Shown: piece after piece, positions 6,199 to 39,411 of the stretch | Layout of the letters: each line of letters starts with the position of its first letter | Numbering within the stretch: the first letter of the stretch is position 1 | From: Alphaproteobacteria bacterium | GTDB taxonomy: Bacteria; Pseudomonadota; Alphaproteobacteria; Rs-D84 | Assembly (NCBI GenBank): GCA_015062525.1 | Contig: SUUM01000004.1 | Location: forward strand, 24,547 to 88,546 | DNA length: 64,000 bases | Reading direction: 5' to 3' | The notes under the pieces: generated by a model | The model's database searches: none | Told to the model about the DNA's origin: nothing | What the model saw: the letters and a program-made list of their open reading frames with translations, nothing else | Program-made: the position numbers and the translations under genes

Positions 6199-6669
6199 TT
6201 ATCTTCCTTTCAGGATTCTCGCTTTACTTTTATCCCATTCACGCTGTTTGATTGTTTCGCGTTTGTCCACCTTGTTTTTACCATAGCCAACACCCAACAA
6301 AACCTTTAGCCGCCCACGATTATTAAAATATAATTTCAGAGGTACAATAGTCGCACCTTTTTCCTGTAATTTTCCAATCAAGCGATTAATCTGATTACGA
6401 TGCAATAATAATTGACGACTGCGCCGTTCATCAAAGTTCACGATACGCGCAGCGGTCGGCAACTTTTGAACTTCTACCCCCGCCAGCCACAAATTATCAC
6501 CACGACGTTGCACAAAACCATCAACAATAGTCACCAAACCATATCGGATTGATTTTATTTCCGCCCCCGTCAGGGAAATTCCTGCTTCTATTGTATCTTC
6601 AATAGAATAATTGAACCGCGCCTTGCGGTTTTCTGAAACCTGTCCTGATTTAATAATTTGTCGTACCAT
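6199..6669 (-). CDS. smpB: SsrA-binding protein SmpB
   Basis: 156 aa with the conserved SmpB sequence pattern (KSGQVSENRKARFNYSIEDTIEAGISLTGAEIKS). Confidence 0.9.
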   Translation of the reverse strand: MVRQIIKSGQVSENRKARFNYSIEDTIEAGISLTGAEIKSIRYGLVTIVDGFVQRRGDNLWLAGVEVQKLPTAARIVNFDERRSRQLLLHRNQINRLIGKLQEKGATIVPLKLYFNNRGRLKVLLGVGYGKNKVDKRETIKQREWDKSKARILKGR

Positions 6670-6711
6670 AATGCAACGATTTTATATCACCCCCACAAAA
6701 AAATCAAATAC

Positions 6712-6905
6712 TTCGCTAAATAAAAGTTTAGTGGTTAGTGTAAGTGCTAGTGGTTAGTGGATGTGTGCGGCGAATGCCGCACATTATAGTGCCATCACTT
6801 ACCACTCACACTAACCACTTATCACTAAGATAAACTTTTATTTATCTAAGTGATGATATGTTAATTGCGCTTTGCTCTTTGCGCTTTGCTCTTTGCTCAT
6901 TGAAA
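6712..6905. repeat. palindromic repeat element (ttagtggttagtg family) plus gcgctttgctctttgc direct repeats
   Basis: ~130-bp imperfect palindrome centred on hairpin TGTGCGGCGAATGCCGCACA; copies recur at 13312, 35866, 38185 and 38440. Confidence 0.8.
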
Positions 6906-6930: not shown

Positions 6931-7983
6931 TCAGAACCTGTACACCCCAGAAACATTGATATTATGCAGTTGAATCACATCATTATATTTATACCGGTAA
7001 CCAATACCAAACTGTACCCCACGTGCCGACAGCAATTCTACACCACCACTAATATTAGCCCACAATGGATCAATATCAATATCATACCGTATAAACTCAT
7101 CCGCTACAGCAAATTTATATTCTGCATGATTTGGCGCACCGAACACATCATATTCCACCCCAATTGATGCATATGGTCGAACTTGGAACCTTGCCGATGG
7201 ATAAATACGTTTCTGTGCAATCAATGAATACCCCGGCGTTAAAACAAAATACCCATCTGATTGCATACGCAGATACTCATGGCCCGCCACCTTTTCTTTG
7301 ACATTAGACCCGAAATTATAGCCAACACGTACATACAAATTACCCACAACATATTGATTCAGAACATCATGCATCAGTCCCCATTCACTCATCAAACTGA
7401 ACGCAGTACCATCACCATCAATTCTGTCAACCAAGTTCTGGGTACGGTCAACGTCAAAGACATGCAAATCCAAGAACGCATTACCATATAAACGTGTCTT
7501 TTCACCCAGTATTTTCATCAAATAACCGCCCAGGCCAATATCAGTATCTGCGACATCAATACTGACATTTCCCACCTGGGTTGTACCAGCATAACTTAAA
7601 TCCACGGAATCACCCGCTTTGGACGTTGTGTGCGACACACGCCCCGACACCCCCAATTGCAAGGTATTTGATTCCTGCCAGTCAAAACCGCCCGCCACAC
7701 TGACACGATGACCGTCTGTATGTTTGCCATCATTAATATTTTGATAGAAAATACCATAATCGACATCCAACCATGCTTTATTCAAATTGCGATGACGATT
7801 CCAGATAAATTCATCAAACATACGGTCTTCGAATGAACGAAAGGACATATGTTCATTTAGCGCGACCGCCCCCGCAATCTGTTCAACAGATACCAGATTT
7901 TGAGCTGTTTCTGGTTCTACTACATCCGCCCCTGCCCCCATTGGCAGCAAGCAACAAACCAAAGATAACAACTTTTTCATCAT
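6931..7983 (-). CDS. outer-membrane beta-barrel protein (family unassigned)
   Basis: Signal peptide MMKKLLSLVCCLLPMGAGA, alternating beta-strand pattern, C-terminal YRF typical of OMPs. Confidence 0.55.
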   Translation of the reverse strand: MMKKLLSLVCCLLPMGAGADVVEPETAQNLVSVEQIAGAVALNEHMSFRSFEDRMFDEFIWNRHRNLNKAWLDVDYGIFYQNINDGKHTDGHRVSVAGGFDWQESNTLQLGVSGRVSHTTSKAGDSVDLSYAGTTQVGNVSIDVADTDIGLGGYLMKILGEKTRLYGNAFLDLHVFDVDRTQNLVDRIDGDGTAFSLMSEWGLMHDVLNQYVVGNLYVRVGYNFGSNVKEKVAGHEYLRMQSDGYFVLTPGYSLIAQKRIYPSARFQVRPYASIGVEYDVFGAPNHAEYKFAVADEFIRYDIDIDPLWANISGGVELLSARGVQFGIGYRYKYNDVIQLHNINVSGVYRF

Positions 7984-12892: not shown

Positions 12893-13010
12893 CGCCATCC
12901 GGCGGGATTTTTTAGTGGCTAGTGTAAGTGCATCCGTCTGTGCACAGCACAGCCGAGATAAAAAGAGCAAAGAGCAATTAATGTATCTTTACCGCGATGA
13001 ATAAAAGTTT
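12893..13010. repeat. repeat element arm (inverted partner of 13437..13530)
   Basis: agtgtaagtgcatccgtctgtgcacagcacagccgagataaaaagagcaaagagcaattaatgtatctttac is the reverse complement of 13441..13510. Confidence 0.75.
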
Positions 13011-13128
13011 AACAGAGATATTAATTTTTAGAAATTAAGCACCATTACCTGCCCCCGTCGGGCCCCGAAAAATTCAGATGAATTTTTTGGGTGACTTTGT
13101 GGGGCGGGACAGTTTTACTTGACCCGCC

Positions 13129-13314
13129 ATGCGGGGCTTTAGTAAAACTTGGGTGGGGGCAAATATGACAAAACATTCAACACAAGTTATTCGCGCAAAA
13201 CAATTACGCAAAAATATGTCAGACGCAGAAAGCAAATTCTGGTATCGAATTAATCGCAATCAACTAGGTGTAAAATTTCGCCGCAATAACAAAGCCACTT
13301 ACTTCGATAAATAA
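13129..13314 (+). pseudogene. truncated DUF559-like (endonuclease-domain) gene fragment
   Basis: 61 aa matching the N-terminal DUF559 pattern (LRKNMSDAESKFWYRINRNQLGVKFRR) but lacking the C-terminal half; ORF ends at the repeat element at 13312. Confidence 0.4.
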
Positions 13315-13530
13315 AAGTTTAGTGGTTAGTGCAAGTGGTTAGTGGTTAGTGGATGTGTGCGGCGAATGCCGCACATTATAGTGCCATCACTTACCACTTA
13401 CACTAACCACTTATCACTAAGATAAACTTTTATTTAGCGCAGTAAAGATACATTAATTGCTCTTTTTATCTCGGCTGTGCTGTGCACAGACGGATGCACT
13501 TACACTAATCACTAAAAAATCCCCGCTTGG
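13312..13530. repeat. palindromic repeat element (ttagtggttagtg family) plus inverted partner arm
   Basis: Near-identical to 6714..6846; the second half is the reverse complement of 12893..12960; ends in an A-tract/hairpin/T-tract terminator-like module also seen at 23843..23907. Confidence 0.8.
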
Positions 13531-35833: not shown

Positions 35834-35859
35834 TCCCATTAATAATTCGTTTGCTTAGA

Positions 35860-36060
35860 TAAATAAAAGTTTAGTGGTTAGTGTAAGTGCTAGTGGTTAG
35901 TGGATGTGTGCGGCGAATGCCGCACATTATAGTGCCATCACTTACCACTTGCACTAACCACTAAACTTTTATTTAGCGAAGTAATCATGGATTCCGCCAC
36001 TTACCACTAACCACTTACACTAACCACTTGCACTAACCACTAAAAAAATCCCCCAAACGG
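35860..36060. repeat. palindromic repeat element copy plus an extra half-copy (ttagtggttagtg family)
   Basis: Near-identical to 6714..6846; followed by a bidirectional terminator at 36041..36074. Confidence 0.8.
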
Positions 36061-36076
36061 GGGATTTTTATTAACA

Positions 36077-37672
36077 TTAAAACAATTTGAACTTGTAATT
36101 TGTTCCTGCACGGAATGTAACATTTGAATCCGCTAAACCGGCCGCCGCATTCACGGACCAGTTATCGCTCAGACCCATTGCCGCACCCAATGCAATCGCG
36201 GATTGACTGTTGTAATAGCCATAACCACCACCAACAGACACTTCGCCCTTGCCTACGCCAGACACCGCAACCGACGACATAGCGGCCGCACTTGCGATAC
36301 CAGCAGACAAATCTTCTTCCAGTGCATCGACCTTTTTATCCGTATAATCATAGGCGGACTTTAATGCCAATTCATTCTTGGAATCAACATATGCCTTGGC
36401 GGATGCCAACGTCATTTCATCGCCCGCAATACGATTTGCAACCTCTTCTTCAATTGCAGTCTTGTTTGCTGCAATGTTTGTTGCGTTTGTTTCAATCGCA
36501 ACCTTGTTTGCAGACACTGCGTCATCAATCGCATTGATCGCACCACTGAATGTTGCTTCATCGCCTGCAATTTCACCGGTCAACGCATCTGACACGGCAT
36601 CTGATTTTGCTGATTCAATCCCCAGCGTGTTGTCAACCCACTGTTGCTTTTCCGCAAAGATATATTCTGCTTCATCGCGCATGGAATCCAATGCAACATC
36701 AATCGCACCATTATCCGCCAATGCATTATCAATTTCTGCCTTGGCACCATTTGTAATTGTTTCCAGAATTGGCGCATCATAGACGTCTTTTGCTGCCTGA
36801 TACAATTCACCATTTGCAACATATGCATCTGCCGCCAGCTGTTTCGCCGCCTGTGCCTCTGCTAACTTAGTCGTTGCTTCGCCAACAGTTGCAAAATAAC
36901 CATCCAGTTCTGCGATTTTTGCACTATCATTTTCGAAAACAGTATTTGCCGCAGCAAAATTAACATCCTCGGTCGCTTTATTCGCAGTGGTCGTGGTCTC
37001 GGCTGTTGCAATATTAGCTTTATCGGCATTATATGCAGCAACCATATTATTAAATTCTGTTTCCAACGCAGAACCAGCAGTCGGCGTCACATCCAAATTT
37101 CTATCATCAACCAATTTTGTACCATCTGCTGACAGATGATATACATAACCGGAATCTTCAACTGTATACAATGTTCCATCAAATTCAACAGCAGTACCAT
37201 TGACAACATCAACCGATGCACCACCCGTGTATGTAGCATCTAATGCAACAACTTCCACCATATCTTGTGCATTTTCGCCCAGTGTTACAGTTTCACCCGC
37301 ACCATTTTTATAGGTGTAATTATCACGGCTGGCGGTTGCACCTGCGGCAATTGTCTGTGTACTTACGATATCGCCCGACGCGGTTGTTGTGCCGGTATAT
37401 GTCGATATATCTGGTGTTCCGTCTTGCAGGCTTTTTGTTGAACCATCTACATCCTTATATGTAAAATCAGTCAAAACCGGGTCTGAATTATATGCAATAC
37501 CCGTCGCGGTTGTACCGTCTGATTTTACGTAATCATACGTTGTACCAGCTACCCCGGCCGAGATATCCATACCACCGTTATATTTACCACCGAATGTGAC
37601 ATCTGTTGCCGCCACGGCTGGGCAAGACATTGCAATTGCAACCAGCGAAGTTAAAACAAAGTGTTTTTTCAT
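36077..37672 (-). CDS. surface adhesin-like protein, possibly a trimeric autotransporter (YadA-like C-terminal anchor)
   Basis: Signal peptide; long Ala/Thr-rich coiled/repetitive passenger; Gly/Ala-rich C-terminal ~80 aa ending FKLF. Confidence 0.5.
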   Translation of the reverse strand: MKKHFVLTSLVAIAMSCPAVAATDVTFGGKYNGGMDISAGVAGTTYDYVKSDGTTATGIAYNSDPVLTDFTYKDVDGSTKSLQDGTPDISTYTGTTTASGDIVSTQTIAAGATASRDNYTYKNGAGETVTLGENAQDMVEVVALDATYTGGASVDVVNGTAVEFDGTLYTVEDSGYVYHLSADGTKLVDDRNLDVTPTAGSALETEFNNMVAAYNADKANIATAETTTTANKATEDVNFAAANTVFENDSAKIAELDGYFATVGEATTKLAEAQAAKQLAADAYVANGELYQAAKDVYDAPILETITNGAKAEIDNALADNGAIDVALDSMRDEAEYIFAEKQQWVDNTLGIESAKSDAVSDALTGEIAGDEATFSGAINAIDDAVSANKVAIETNATNIAANKTAIEEEVANRIAGDEMTLASAKAYVDSKNELALKSAYDYTDKKVDALEEDLSAGIASAAAMSSVAVSGVGKGEVSVGGGYGYYNSQSAIALGAAMGLSDNWSVNAAAGLADSNVTFRAGTNYKFKLF

Positions 37673-37699
37673 TTTCTTTTCCCTTTTTCGTTTAATTAA

Positions 37700-37730
37700 A
37701 CAAAAACCGTCATGGAAATGACGGTCAGGG
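37700..37730 (-). terminator. terminator-like hairpin (CCGTCATTTCCATGACGG + T-tract) 20 nt upstream of the adhesin start codon
   Basis: On the minus strand the hairpin and U-tract immediately precede the RBS; it insulates the gene from rpsB-tsf read-through or acts as a leader attenuator. Confidence 0.5.
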
Positions 37731-37984
37731 GGTTAAGAAAATCATATCGCAGAATGACCTCCGTGGCTTTTACGCGTATGCGCTGTTGTATGGCCACGGA
37801 CCCCCCGACAAAATCGGGCAGAAAATTGCAAAATAAAAAGCGCATCCGCGCCCTGGTTCTTTTATTTTGCCAAAGTCGGATATCAATGCAATATATGCAC
37901 CGCTGCAATAAAGGATTTCTTACGTCCCTGACCCAACATCCCTGTTGGTTCCCAGACATTATAAAATAAACAAAATATAAATTC

Positions 37985-38535
37985 AATTACTTTGATAAAT
38001 AAAAGTTTATCTTACAAAACACGTTAAGTGTTTTGTCATTCCGTGGCTTGACCACGGAACCCAGGTTATGCGCGCAAAGCGCGCACAAATAATAAGGATT
38101 CTATTACCTGGGTCCCGGTGTCAAGCACCGGGATGACAGAATTTTTTTACAAAAATTCTGTTTTTATTTACCCCACTAAACTTTTATTTAGCGAAGTAAT
38201 CATGGATTCCGCCACTTACCACTAACCACTTACACTAACCACTAAAAATCCCCCATTTACCCCGCTAAATAAAAGTTTAGTGAAATATTTAATTGTTAAA
38301 AAAATTAAGAACAGAGACAAGTTCTCCTCCGTGGGAGGAGTACGGCGTAGCCGGGAGGTGGGTTAACCCACCCCGTCCGCTTCGCGTCCACCCCTCCCCG
38401 GGGGCGCATGTGCGCCGCCGACGGAGGGGAACTTTTACCCCGCTAAACTTTTATTTATCGCAGTAATCATGGATTCCGCCACTTACCACTAACCACTTAC
38501 ACTAACCACTAAAAAAATCCCCATTACCGGGGATT
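37985..38535. repeat. composite intergenic repeat region: MITE-like element with ~33-bp TIRs (38035..38165), repeat-element half copies, GC-rich structured insert (38285..38450)
   Basis: TIR tgtcattccgtggcttgaccacggaacccaggt versus acctgggtcccggtgtcaagcaccgggatgaca; GC-rich hairpins ctcctccgtgggaggag and gggaggtgggttaacccacccc. Confidence 0.7.
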
Positions 38536-38541
38536 TTTTTA

Positions 38542-39411
38542 TTACTTCAACATCTTAGCAACTTCATCGGCCAGATTGTCTTCGCGTTTTTCAATACCTT
38601 CGCCCAGTACATAGTACGCAAAGCCCGCCAATTTACCACCGGCCTCGCCTACTACTTCTTTGACTGTTTTCGATGGATCCATAACGAATGGCTGTTCTTC
38701 CAGAACCGATTCGCCATAGTATTTCTTGATACGACCTTCGACCATCTTTTCAACGATGTTTTCTGGTTTGCCCGCCGTTGCACCAGATTCGATAAACACT
38801 TTCTTTTCGCGTTCAACCGCAACTGGGTCAACATCCGCAATTGTCATAAATTCTGGTTTATTCGCCGCAATGTGCATTGCGATTTTGTAACCAATTTCAT
38901 CAATTTTTGCGTCATCACCATTGATAGCAACCGCAACACCAATCTGTCCCATACCTGGAACCAGGGCATTGTGAATATACGTAAAGATTTTATCGCCCTG
39001 CACCTTGGCAATACGACGCAGGTTCATATTTTCACCAATTGTTGAAATAGTCGCCGCGATATCATCTTTGACCGCCGCCATTGTTGCATCAAAATCACCC
39101 TTTAATTCCATAGCCTTGTTTGCGACATCCGCAACCAACTTCTGGAACTTGTCATTTTTGGCAACAAAGTCTGTTTCGGCATTCAATTCAACGACACAGC
39201 CCATACCATCGCATTTAACAACGGTCACCAAACCAGATGCTGCAACACGCCCGGCCTTGGATGCCGCTTTGACAATACCCTTCTGACGCAACCAATCGGC
39301 GGCGGCTTCGATATTGCCATCATTTTCGATTAAGGCTTTCTTACAATCCATCATACCCGCAGATGTTTTTTCGCGCAGTTCTTGAATCAATTTTGCTGTA
39401 ATTTCTGCCAT
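38542..39411 (-). CDS. tsf: elongation factor Ts
   Basis: AEITAKLIQELREKTSAGMMDCKKAL N-terminus; 289 aa. Confidence 0.92.
   Translation of the reverse strand: MAEITAKLIQELREKTSAGMMDCKKALIENDGNIEAAADWLRQKGIVKAASKAGRVAASGLVTVVKCDGMGCVVELNAETDFVAKNDKFQKLVADVANKAMELKGDFDATMAAVKDDIAATISTIGENMNLRRIAKVQGDKIFTYIHNALVPGMGQIGVAVAINGDDAKIDEIGYKIAMHIAANKPEFMTIADVDPVAVEREKKVFIESGATAGKPENIVEKMVEGRIKKYYGESVLEEQPFVMDPSKTVKEVVGEAGGKLAGFAYYVLGEGIEKREDNLADEVAKMLK

Follow-up and report, generated by a model that had tools for sequence, protein, structure and literature searches.

The 870-nt spacer between a YadA_anchor gene and tsf, at 37673-38541 of a 64,000-nt stretch of DNA from an uncultured rumen alphaproteobacterium (hereafter the window; 43.6% GC; all coordinates are positions in it), houses two hairpin-rich elements: a block of 114 nt that folds into five hairpins (the GC element) and a palindrome with the termini GTCAT and ATGAC (the GTCAT element). 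On balance, we favor reading the spacer as an array of non-coding, non-autonomous interspersed repeats composed of exchangeable modules, a hairpin-based mosaic that spreads and recombines at the 3' ends of genes. The modules comprise the ends of a local palindromic element (PE), 7-nt arrays of the TTAGTGG type, the GTCAT-type palindrome and the five-hairpin GC element. The GC element belongs to a family with a conserved structure, dispersed to unrelated loci, polymorphic between strains and present in two phyla. Both features had been noticed in a sequence-only reading of this stretch and both are real, their boundaries being corrected here. The parts of the array are listed below; loci from other assemblies carry the prefix L, and R1 is a covariance model of the family.

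38319-38432, plus strand: GC-rich five-hairpin element (R1: 66.9 bits, E 9e-17)
38281-38318, plus strand: AT-rich linker tgaaatatttaattgttaaaaaaattaagaacagagac, kept in L003 (both copies), L008, L009 and L010; it travels with the GC element in the clade of the window
38257-38280, no strand: PE left end bounding the composite, TTACCCCGCTAAATAAAAGTTTAG, pairing with 38443-38466; L003, L008, L009 and L010 also have this end before their GC elements
38443-38466, no strand: PE right end bounding the composite, CTAAACTTTTATTTATCGCAGTAA; L003, L008 and L009 also have this end after their GC elements
37986-38009, no strand: left end-half of a PE, ATTACTTTGATAAATAAAAGTTTA, pairing with 38177-38200 (24 nt, 92% complementary)
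38031-38141, no strand: GTCAT palindromic element, two 39-nt inverted arms around a 33-nt core
38167-38261, no strand: direct repeat copy 1, a PE right end (38177-38200) followed by 7-nt repeats CCACTTA/CCACTAA (~38212-38246)
38434-38528, no strand: direct repeat copy 2, a PE right end followed by a 7-nt repeat array (~38479-38513)

The GC element (71% GC) consists of the hairpins H1 (38324-38340), H2 (38344-38352), H3 (38353-38374; GGTGGGTTAACCCACC, the shortest H3 of the family), H4 (38375-38389) and H5 (38391-38429), the loop of H5 containing an additional hairpin at 38398-38422. Folding yields a minimum free energy of -74.9 kcal/mol (z -4.7) for the plus and of -83.0 kcal/mol (z -6.4) for the minus strand. 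R1 also scores the minus strand (41 bits), this being its sole locus in the 64 kb; no further copy was found in the window by the model or by a pattern search. The block had previously been placed at 38285-38450; it is GC-rich and all three hairpins quoted for it are present, but 38285-38318 is the AT-rich linker. Its nesting between half-copies of a palindromic element was correctly seen (38257-38280 and 38443-38466, 24 nt, 88% complementary); these half-copies are set within the 95-nt direct repeat. PE end, linker, GC element and PE end make up a composite unit of ~205 nt.

The PE itself is a palindrome of ~140 nt, complete copies of which, bounded by these ends, lie at ~6709-6850, ~13299-13445 and ~35858-35985 of the window. 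The two direct repeats (95 nt) are 92% identical, and copy 1 is 100% identical over 71 nt to 35958-36028. The 7-nt arrays of the window are found at 38212-38246, 38479-38513, 35870-35900, 35990-36045, 6727-6760 and 13318-13352; heptad arrays (TTAGTGG, TTAGTGT, TAAGTGG) adjoin terminator hairpins throughout the alphaproteobacterial loci, and a very similar heptad (TTAGTGA or ATAGTGA) stands after the stop codons of Fib_succ_major genes in a Bacteroidales metagenome-assembled genome (MAG; L018, L039, L044 and L061). The arrays may be akin to the WATCACW heptads to which ribbon-helix-helix repressors bind. A larger element with long inverted ends (…ttagaaattaagcaccattacctgccccc…gggccccgaaaaa…tttttgggtga…) is found within PE ends at 12985-13290 of the window and at ~4960-5400 of L003; in the window it precedes a truncated open reading frame (ORF) starting MTKHSTQVIRAKQLRKNMSDAESKFWYRINRNQLGVKFRR, presumably DUF559-like. 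Other copies (L027-29, L059, L066 and L021) have the same gggccccg-A-run/T-run-gggtga hairpin module as an insert, either in the H5 loop or in a GTCAT arm. Another GC-rich module of ~58 nt, tataagcaaccctccccaccggcatgcgccggtccgccccctccaccggaggggaatt, repeatedly adjoins PE ends and a terminator hairpin in MAGs related to the source of the window (L008 385-430; L009 ~6600-6660 and 6965-7020; L010 120-180).

Copies, architecture and covariation of the five-hairpin family

A scan of GTDB (one genome per GTDB species) with an exact 20-mer from the 5' hairpin of the block detected four true loci in three Alphaproteobacteria MAGs (L006, L008, L009 and L010). The ~205-nt composite recurs, 93-98% identical, at unrelated loci in KG228-117 (L008) and KV104-158 (L009 and L010), with neighbors that differ among the loci (rpsO/truB, for example); in L008 it is flanked by a small ribosomal-protein gene on one side and by rpsO on the other. 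A goat-reticulum MAG (L006) has the first hairpin alone in common, and the match in a Ruminococcus MAG (L007) was discarded as a 26-nt chance match within a coding region. A slightly degenerate 24-mer retrieved 56 loci from JGI metagenomes, and independent assemblies (JGI, ENA and NCBI) hold the very GC-element sequence of the window. Over the 410 kb of loci fetched, R1 gives 146 matches with both strands counted, including copies that lack the search word; we estimate the family at roughly 70-80 distinct copies in these loci. A single contig may carry several of them (four on a contig of 223 kb, three on one of 146 kb).

All 49 complete copies (43 distinct) show one block order, for which the consensus is (CAGAG.GC.A)AG TTCTCCTCC-NNN-GGAGGAG TAC GG[H2]CC GGGAGGTGG[H3]CCACCCC G[H4]C A CCCCTCC-NNN(N)-GGAGGGGAAC. 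The GC element is thus two inverted, non-identical units of ~45-50 nt around a variable spacer, the right half mirroring the left down to the termini (AAGTTCTCCTCC and GGAGGGGAACTT). Each unit consists of TTCYCCTCC-loop-GGAGGRG, a short GC hairpin, mostly with a G-N-A triloop, and GGG(A)GGTGG. Sequence is invariant in the termini and the junction blocks, whereas compensatory change maintains the small hairpins: H2 occurs as CGTAG, CGAAG, TGTGGAACA, CGTGGAACG, CCTAGCAGG, TCGAAGA and others, always with a stem of 3-5 bp and mostly with a G-N-A triloop, H4 occurs for instance as GGCCTGCGGCC, GGCACTTCGTGCC, GTCGCTACGCGAC or GGCGGGTGCTACCCGCC, its loops being mostly the complement of G-N-A, and the H3 loop ranges from 6 to ~70 nt. 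Alphaproteobacterial and Bacteroidales copies have ~54 invariant alignment columns in common, just 21 of which are imposed by the search.

Conservation of the fold was assessed on alignment A2, from which R1 was built (23 sequences aligned with MAFFT, the window type excluded; the sequences are related and H1 is fixed by the search word). The five-hairpin structure pairs in 91.8% of the alignment cells, compared to 44-56% in slid controls, and nine pairs change on both sides (two in H2, four in H3 and three in H4). The covariation score is 0.132, a value reached by none of 500 shuffles (0.061), compared to 0.02-0.06 in slid controls. RNAalifold instead predicts a long-range stem, P1, which pairs the termini with each other and encloses H2, H3 and H4 in a three-way junction (-47.5 kcal/mol). 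The terminal pair of P1 covaries, being G-C in 15 alphaproteobacterial and A-U (A-T) in eight Bacteroidales sequences, which either a real stem or mirrored inverted ends would fit. P1 as the sole structure, although preferred by the single-sequence fold and by RNAalifold, was rejected: H1 and H5 are each perfectly self-complementary while P1 requires a conserved wobble and a mismatch, and L030 and L034 have a double change within H5 (CCCCTCT...AGAGGGG). Because of this self-complementarity and this double change, the local hairpins and the long-range fold are both possible, and the two alternative pairings of the four arms may be the reason for the frozen arm sequence.

Neither strand stands out. 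Stem cells with G-U and with A-C number 14 to 14, hence an assignment of the strand from wobble pairs was abandoned as uninformative; R1 also scores the opposite strand of the copies (41-90 bits), and the G-N-A loops of H2 and H4 lie on opposite strands. This symmetry fits a palindrome acting at the DNA level better than an RNA made from one strand. The block may still be a small ncRNA, the third option of the sequence-only reading, although neither strand gives a signal for one. In the window copy, no U-run stands beside H1 or H5 on either strand, and the lone terminator-like call (38332-38311, minus strand) concerns a weak stem that is not part of the family structure.

Exact-protein look-ups assign L011, L036, L040 and L049 to Alphaproteobacteria MAGs and L018, L020, L041, L043, L048, L051 and L061 to Bacteroidales MAG records (MCL20268xx-MCL20287xx), which probably represent a single MAG, since they have one locus tag (FWG79). 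The Bacteroidales contigs bear typical Bacteroidota genes (T9SS CHU_C and Fib_succ_major domains). Copies of this MAG, at least 16 in number, occupy 16 loci of one metagenome and are of low diversity; the alphaproteobacterial copies are diverse. The GC element may have passed into the Bacteroidales lineage and then been amplified there. In this MAG, direct repeats of 135 nt (L037 8-142 and 2702-2836, 97.8% identical) flank a segment of ~2.7 kb that holds a GC element and a gene for a YhcG/DUF1016 PDDEXK nuclease.

Copies with ORFs on both sides number 32, with 11 between convergent genes, 13 in tandem contexts in minus orientation, six in tandem contexts in plus orientation and two between divergent genes; 30 of the 32 face at least one gene 3' end. 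Some of the flanking genes are housekeeping genes (pgk, tatC, rnhB, recR, rpsO), and others encode secreted or surface proteins. Among the 148 flanking ORFs, no family of transposases or recombinases recurs, RAYT (Y1_Tnp) included, and no gene-sized insert between the inverted units was seen in the ~410 kb of loci. A family of ten secreted proteins adjoins the elements in nine alphaproteobacterial loci (L015, L024, L025, L028, L031, L042, L049, L059 and L066); it has a conserved Cys-rich C-terminus (...CWCKM..P...WVF......C...CA..CA....R..MF), some members have YadA-stalk-like repeats, and the list of recurrent families gives no Pfam name for it. In L019 (288-337) and L065 (920-970), an isolated left half (H1, H2 and GGGAGGTGG) lies antisense, 0-4 nt past the stop codon of orthologous 195-aa genes, and a U-rich run follows on the gene strand; these ~50 nt are nearly identical though the loci are 75% identical in DNA, and the solo half looks like a recruited terminator.

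Rfam 15 does not contain the family, and literature searches with characteristic sequence strings yielded no relevant paper. The Rfam search that had been suggested for the GC-rich block gave no relevant match at E up to 10 (window copy, L057 and L036), only miRNA-type hairpin noise, and in 15 loci submitted to Rfam 15 the GC element was not matched, ten loci yielding nothing but tRNA genes at the gathering score. Neither the GC element nor the GTCAT element was matched in PLSDB plasmids. A phage origin was considered and rejected: one viral-flagged contig has a partial copy, and 15 pattern matches to H3 only in viral contigs are due to chance. On that contig (L054 = L067, IMG/VR, 6050 bp), the partial, rearranged GC element is found at 500-620 beside a phage head-to-tail connector (portal-type) gene.

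The tsf locus, its strain variation and the GTCAT palindrome

The neighborhood of the array is made up as follows.

36077-37672, minus strand: gene of a YadA-like surface protein, 531 aa (ORF; Pfam PF03895, YadA_anchor, on the identical gene in L001), with the repeat thicket upstream of it
38542-39411, minus strand: tsf, elongation factor Ts, 289 aa (ORF; Pfam EF_TS)
38510-38541, minus strand: terminator-type hairpin GGGGATTTTTTTA / TAAAAAAATCCCC directly 3' of the tsf stop codon, between tsf and the repeats (inverted repeat of 13 nt, 100% complementary)

Beyond tsf lies rpsB, and polA is located on the far side of the YadA-like gene. The Tsf protein is identical to MBE6460847.1 ('Alphaproteobacteria bacterium', an uncultured MAG), and a 66-kb JGI metagenome contig is 100% identical to the window (3.5 kb compared). 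L002 has another stem sequence at the position of the tsf terminator hairpin. A tRNA/tmRNA scan of the region gave nothing. Upstream of the YadA-like gene, a structured element at 37716-37809 (minus strand), conserved in strain L002, has a sub-threshold match to Rfam sRNA-Xcc1 (36.2 bits, gathering score 53, E 1.9e-4); terminator-like hairpins (37726-37705 and 37854-37837) and a promoter-like site (TTGAAT-17-TATAAT, 37986-37958) lie near it, and it may be a regulatory leader.

At the tsf locus, among strains with a tsf-side flank at least 98.7% identical, the composite is single in the window, L001 and 12 similar contigs, tandemly doubled in L003 with a period of 222 nt and one base difference between the copies, and absent from L002 and L004, where another GTCAT element is found instead. 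Past the array of L003 (4400-6870, compared to 36000-38250 of the window) come an ORF of 91 aa, rmuC and def, not the YadA-like gene and polA; therefore, a rearrangement break-point lies within the array. At other loci, tandem pairs occur in L017, L040 and L045, L017 having two copies where L057 has one (flanks 79-89% identical); L014 and L021, with flanks 65-68% identical, each have an element in the corresponding position but differ in its H2, H3 and H4 modules; and partial copies are nested in H3 loops and beside one another. Seven contigs (L005 and similar ones) stop exactly at the element and eight other contigs or stretches within it (those ending in or at the element include L005, L010, L015, L033, L038, L041, L047 and L051), which is the expected effect of a multi-copy repeat on assemblies. 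No target-site duplication was seen at the edges of the PE or of the GC element, the exact ends of which are uncertain. A clean pair of filled and empty sites was looked for and not found, the candidate in L009 being a PE remnant. The sequence-only reading had considered the block possibly mobile and structured and had named a lack of further copies and of a covariation-supported structure as grounds for refutation; further copies and covariation are both present, and the many copies at unrelated loci, the covarying stems and the strain differences in presence and copy number bear this part of it out.

The GTCAT element had been described as a classic miniature inverted-repeat transposable element (MITE) at 38035-38165. 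Its two inverted arms with a core hairpin are confirmed, with an end at ~38141 and not at 38165. A repeat search places the arms at 38031-38069 and 38103-38141 (39 nt, 79% complementary, 33 nt apart), GTCAT at 38035-38039 and ATGAC at 38133-38137, and the core hairpin GCGCGCAAAGCGCGC (GCGCGC-AAA-GCGCGC) at 38070-38084; the whole lies, like the composite, between PE end-halves (37986-38009 and 38177-38200). Each arm folds on itself into an 8-9-bp hairpin with a CTTGA loop (~38040-38059 and ~38114-38132), the 23-nt hairpins reading, on their own strands, ATTCCGTGG-CTTGA-CCACGGAA and ATCCCGGTG-CTTGA-CACCGGGA. Chance alone would give 0.02 occurrences of the arm pattern in the window; there are two, namely the two arms. 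As single-stranded DNA, the element folds with -35.6 kcal/mol compared to -14.1 ± 2.7 for shuffles (z -8.0; none of 200 shuffles as good). It has the terminal inverted repeats, the small size and the non-coding nature of a MITE, but no second complete copy was found in the 64-kb window, no autonomous partner was found, and no target-site duplication was seen at its edges in the window or in L002, the exact ends being uncertain; the label of a classic MITE is therefore supported only in part.

The GTCAT element of L002 and L004 stands at the equivalent place and is different and divergent, its arms being 20-bp inverted repeats (ATTCCAGCGCAGGCAGGAAT and ATCCCCGCCGTCGCGGGGAT in L002). Complete GTCAT-type copies were found only in the window, in L002/L004 (tsf locus) and in L059, L023, L064 and L055, whereas lone arms are frequent in related loci. 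The one database resemblance of the GTCAT element of the window is to Rfam WsnRNA46 (Wolbachia small RNA 46, RF02625), with which it aligns across the whole 151-position model on both strands, having GUCAU..CC..UGAC..GG.A.CCAG in common with it in both arms. The scores (minus strand, 38.0 bits; plus strand, 33.8 bits) are, however, far under the gathering score of 65.3, and the GTCAT elements of L002, L023 and L059 gave no match at E 0.001 in a five-locus search. The GTCAT element is thus weakly WsnRNA46-like and not a member of that family.

GTCAT-type arms and GC elements keep company. In L059, L066, L021 and L026, 18-20 nt separate the GC element from an arm upstream of it (e.g., GTCATTCCGCGGTAACGCGGAATCTCC); in L049 and L011, an inverted arm is found downstream of it. 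In alphaproteobacterial loci, arms of 20-21 bp with the form AT-N-CC-S...S-GG-N-AT, in which position 3 covaries, occur 20 times. Bacteroidales copies of the GC element are followed by 7-nt arrays of the CGTAAAT and TTAGTGA types, the arrays of the window and of other alphaproteobacterial loci being of the TTAGTGG type; in three of the Bacteroidales loci (L023, L064 and L055) a complete GTCATTGCGAG...CTCGCAATGAC palindrome also follows. Since GTCAT arms and heptad arrays stand beside GC elements, the GTCAT and GC features are modules of one mosaic system, a connection that the sequence-only reading did not make.

Mechanism, alternatives and related repeat systems

We infer mobilization in trans, recognition at the DNA level and an effect on neighboring genes. 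The hairpins would be extruded as single-stranded DNA or as cruciforms, and secondarily in RNA, and would be recognized by a putative trans-acting recombinase or transposase. Copies would spread to intergenic sites at the 3' ends of genes, swapping modules between sites, would duplicate in tandem and would serve as recombination break-points; an element with a following U-tract may also act as a transcription terminator or 3' stabilizer. Several observations weigh against this proposal. No enzyme, autonomous copy or target-site duplication was found in the loci examined, transposition thus being an inferred step, and tandem duplication, homologous recombination and gene conversion could explain much of the variation. 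The ~54 bases kept across two phyla, together with the retention at orthologous sites with flanks only ~66% identical, exceed what is usual for a selfish repeat, and such conservation could reflect a host function, for example as an RNA or a protein-binding site. On the minus strand of the Bacteroidales copies, the last hairpin (CUCCUCC-loop-GGAGGAG) is followed by AA and a U-run (GGAGGAG-AA-TTTTTT) as in an intrinsic terminator; the corresponding feature of the solo units of L019 and L065 is loose, with a U-run 4-5 nt past the stem. Finally, each large collection (GTDB, JGI) was scanned once, and the search words fixed 21 bases of H1, so that the sampled family is biased to the H1 block.

One of two main alternatives is that the GC element is a functional structured RNA, either a cis-acting 3'-UTR (untranslated region) module, that is a terminator or a barrier to 3' exonucleases, or a multi-copy small RNA, the repeats being its genes. 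A barrier to 3' exonucleases is also the role proposed for repetitive extragenic palindromic (REP) elements. The covarying stems, the closed three-way junction computed by RNAalifold, the invariant blocks common to two phyla, the retention at orthologous intergenic sites of diverged species, the terminator-like minus-strand ends just described, the 30 of 32 copies that face a gene 3' end and the excess of minus orientation in tandem contexts (13 to 6) all agree with such a role. We nevertheless regard it as doubtful. In the window, the tsf terminator hairpin comes before the copy, and no U-tract adjoins the last hairpin of the copy; G-U pairs are in excess on neither strand, R1 scores both strands and both of them fold, and no Rfam family matches. 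The preference for one orientation is slight, paralogous and orthologous loci having inflated it, and tandem duplicates, nested fragments and contig breaks typify repeats, not RNA genes.

The position of the array between tsf and a surface-protein gene brings to mind the second main alternative, namely that it is a recombinase target acting like dRS3 in the neisserial NIME, which would promote the exchange and rearrangement of adjacent surface-protein genes and not its own movement. NIME are made up of 20-bp dRS3 inverted repeats (ATTCCC-N8-GGGAAT) that flank many families of 50-150-bp modules; the arrays are dynamic, lie beside surface genes, and serve as integration site for a phage recombinase that uses dRS3 (PMC1797815). 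The strain-variable content of the array, the break-point in L003, the presence of the ten-member Cys-rich secreted family beside the elements in nine loci and the 20-21-bp form of the covarying GTCAT arms in related loci would agree with this proposal. The fact that most copies flank housekeeping genes (pgk, tatC, rnhB, recR, rpsO), that no recombinase gene was seen in the loci examined, that the arms in the window do not fit the dRS3 consensus and that the own conserved blocks of the five-hairpin element would go unexplained, makes it unlikely.

We also considered whether the GC element might be an accessory of a diversity-generating retroelement (DGR), a GC-rich hairpin after the variable repeat of a DGR target gene. 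Domains of the Fib_succ_major and FGE-sulfatase types are common DGR targets, and in the Bacteroidales MAG the distance from a Fib_succ_major-domain gene to a copy downstream of it is 150-310 nt in seven cases; one copy has an FGE-sulfatase-domain gene in its vicinity, and one is separated by 280 nt from a reverse-transcriptase fragment. The link was rejected as very improbable: no template/variable repeat pair was found in these loci, the reverse transcriptase is confined to one locus, as an isolated fragment truncated at its N-terminus, the alphaproteobacterial copies, that of the window included, flank housekeeping genes, and the copies per genome are too many for an accessory. That the block is a one-off, be it a chance palindrome, an assembly artifact or a horizontally acquired scrap without a family, could be argued from its single copy in the 64-kb window and its GC content (71% vs 43.6%), but is hardly conceivable, being refuted by the same sequence in JGI, ENA and NCBI assemblies, the ~70-80 copies and the covarying stems. 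The horizontally acquired fragment proposed in the sequence-only reading is not supported either, given that the high GC content stems from the conserved hairpin stems of a repeat family and not from foreign coding DNA.

Turning back to the mosaic of interspersed repeats, the neisserial NIME is its closest description: the form matches, while the consensus and the host do not. Both are arrays in which short GC-rich inverted repeats alternate with non-coding modules of 50-150 bp, and both vary between strains in content and length, often lie beside surface-protein genes and coincide with rearrangements. The GTCAT arms of related loci (20-21 bp, e.g., ATTCCGCGGTAACGCGGAAT, and ATTCCAGCGCAGGCAGGAAT in L002) are close in form to ATTCCC-N8-GGGAAT. 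The consensus ATTCCCNNNNNNNNGGGAAT is not met by the arms in the window, however, and the L002 arm matches 5+5 of its 6+6 fixed bases; the hosts are Alphaproteobacteria and Bacteroidales, not Neisseria; the five-hairpin element has long invariant blocks and spans phyla, which is not described for RS elements; and no dRS3-specific recombinase or phage was seen in the loci examined.

Similar to REPIN/BIME-RAYT systems, the GC element is non-coding, GC-rich and intergenic, mostly at gene 3' ends, and is an inverted doublet of hairpin-forming units around a short spacer with compensatory changes in the stems; both have tens of copies per genome, no mobilizing gene adjacent to them and a possible side role as RNA 3' stabilizer or terminator. 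Its halves, however, are of ~45-50 nt with two hairpins, whereas a REP is a single one of ~20-35 nt, and its units have no GTAG head but carry GAGTACGG. REP families are usually specific to a species or genus, while the five-hairpin family keeps its ~54 invariant bases across two phyla. MITEs, among them the neisserial Correia elements and the palindromic elements of Rickettsia and Wolbachia, are likewise non-coding, of 100-210 nt, with terminal inverted repeats, dispersed, strain-polymorphic and nested. Inverted ends are seen in the GTCAT element (39 nt, 79%), the composite (24-nt PE ends, 88%) and the GC element (mirrored termini), and multiple dispersed copies in the GC element. No target-site duplication or related autonomous transposon was found in the loci examined. 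In contrast to MITEs, the inverted ends are hairpin-containing units, the stems of which covary independently at the two ends, and not simple protein-binding repeats.

Bacterial interspersed repeats such as REP, NIME and MITE shape genome rearrangement, surface-antigen variation and mRNA stability. To our knowledge, nearly all characterized repeat families come from cultured Proteobacteria and are lineage-specific. We tentatively put forward that an undescribed tripartite cis-acting system of gut Alphaproteobacteria and of a Bacteroidales lineage might be made up of the five-hairpin element, the 7-nt arrays of the TTAGTGR type and the GTCAT palindromes. It would be either the substrate of a hairpin-specific machinery for mobilization or recombination, which would have passed between phyla and then multiplied, or a new class of structured RNA whose function in the host is conserved; in both cases the ~54 bases would be fixed by that interaction and not by recent common descent. 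The elements break metagenome assemblies of rumen Alphaproteobacteria and mark hypervariable loci beside surface-protein genes, and R1 could be used for annotating the family. What sets the family apart is the combination of invariant blocks with covarying hairpins, its occurrence in two gut-bacterial phyla and the same companion modules in both, a pattern that points to a specific recognizing factor, a putative enzyme or RNA partner.

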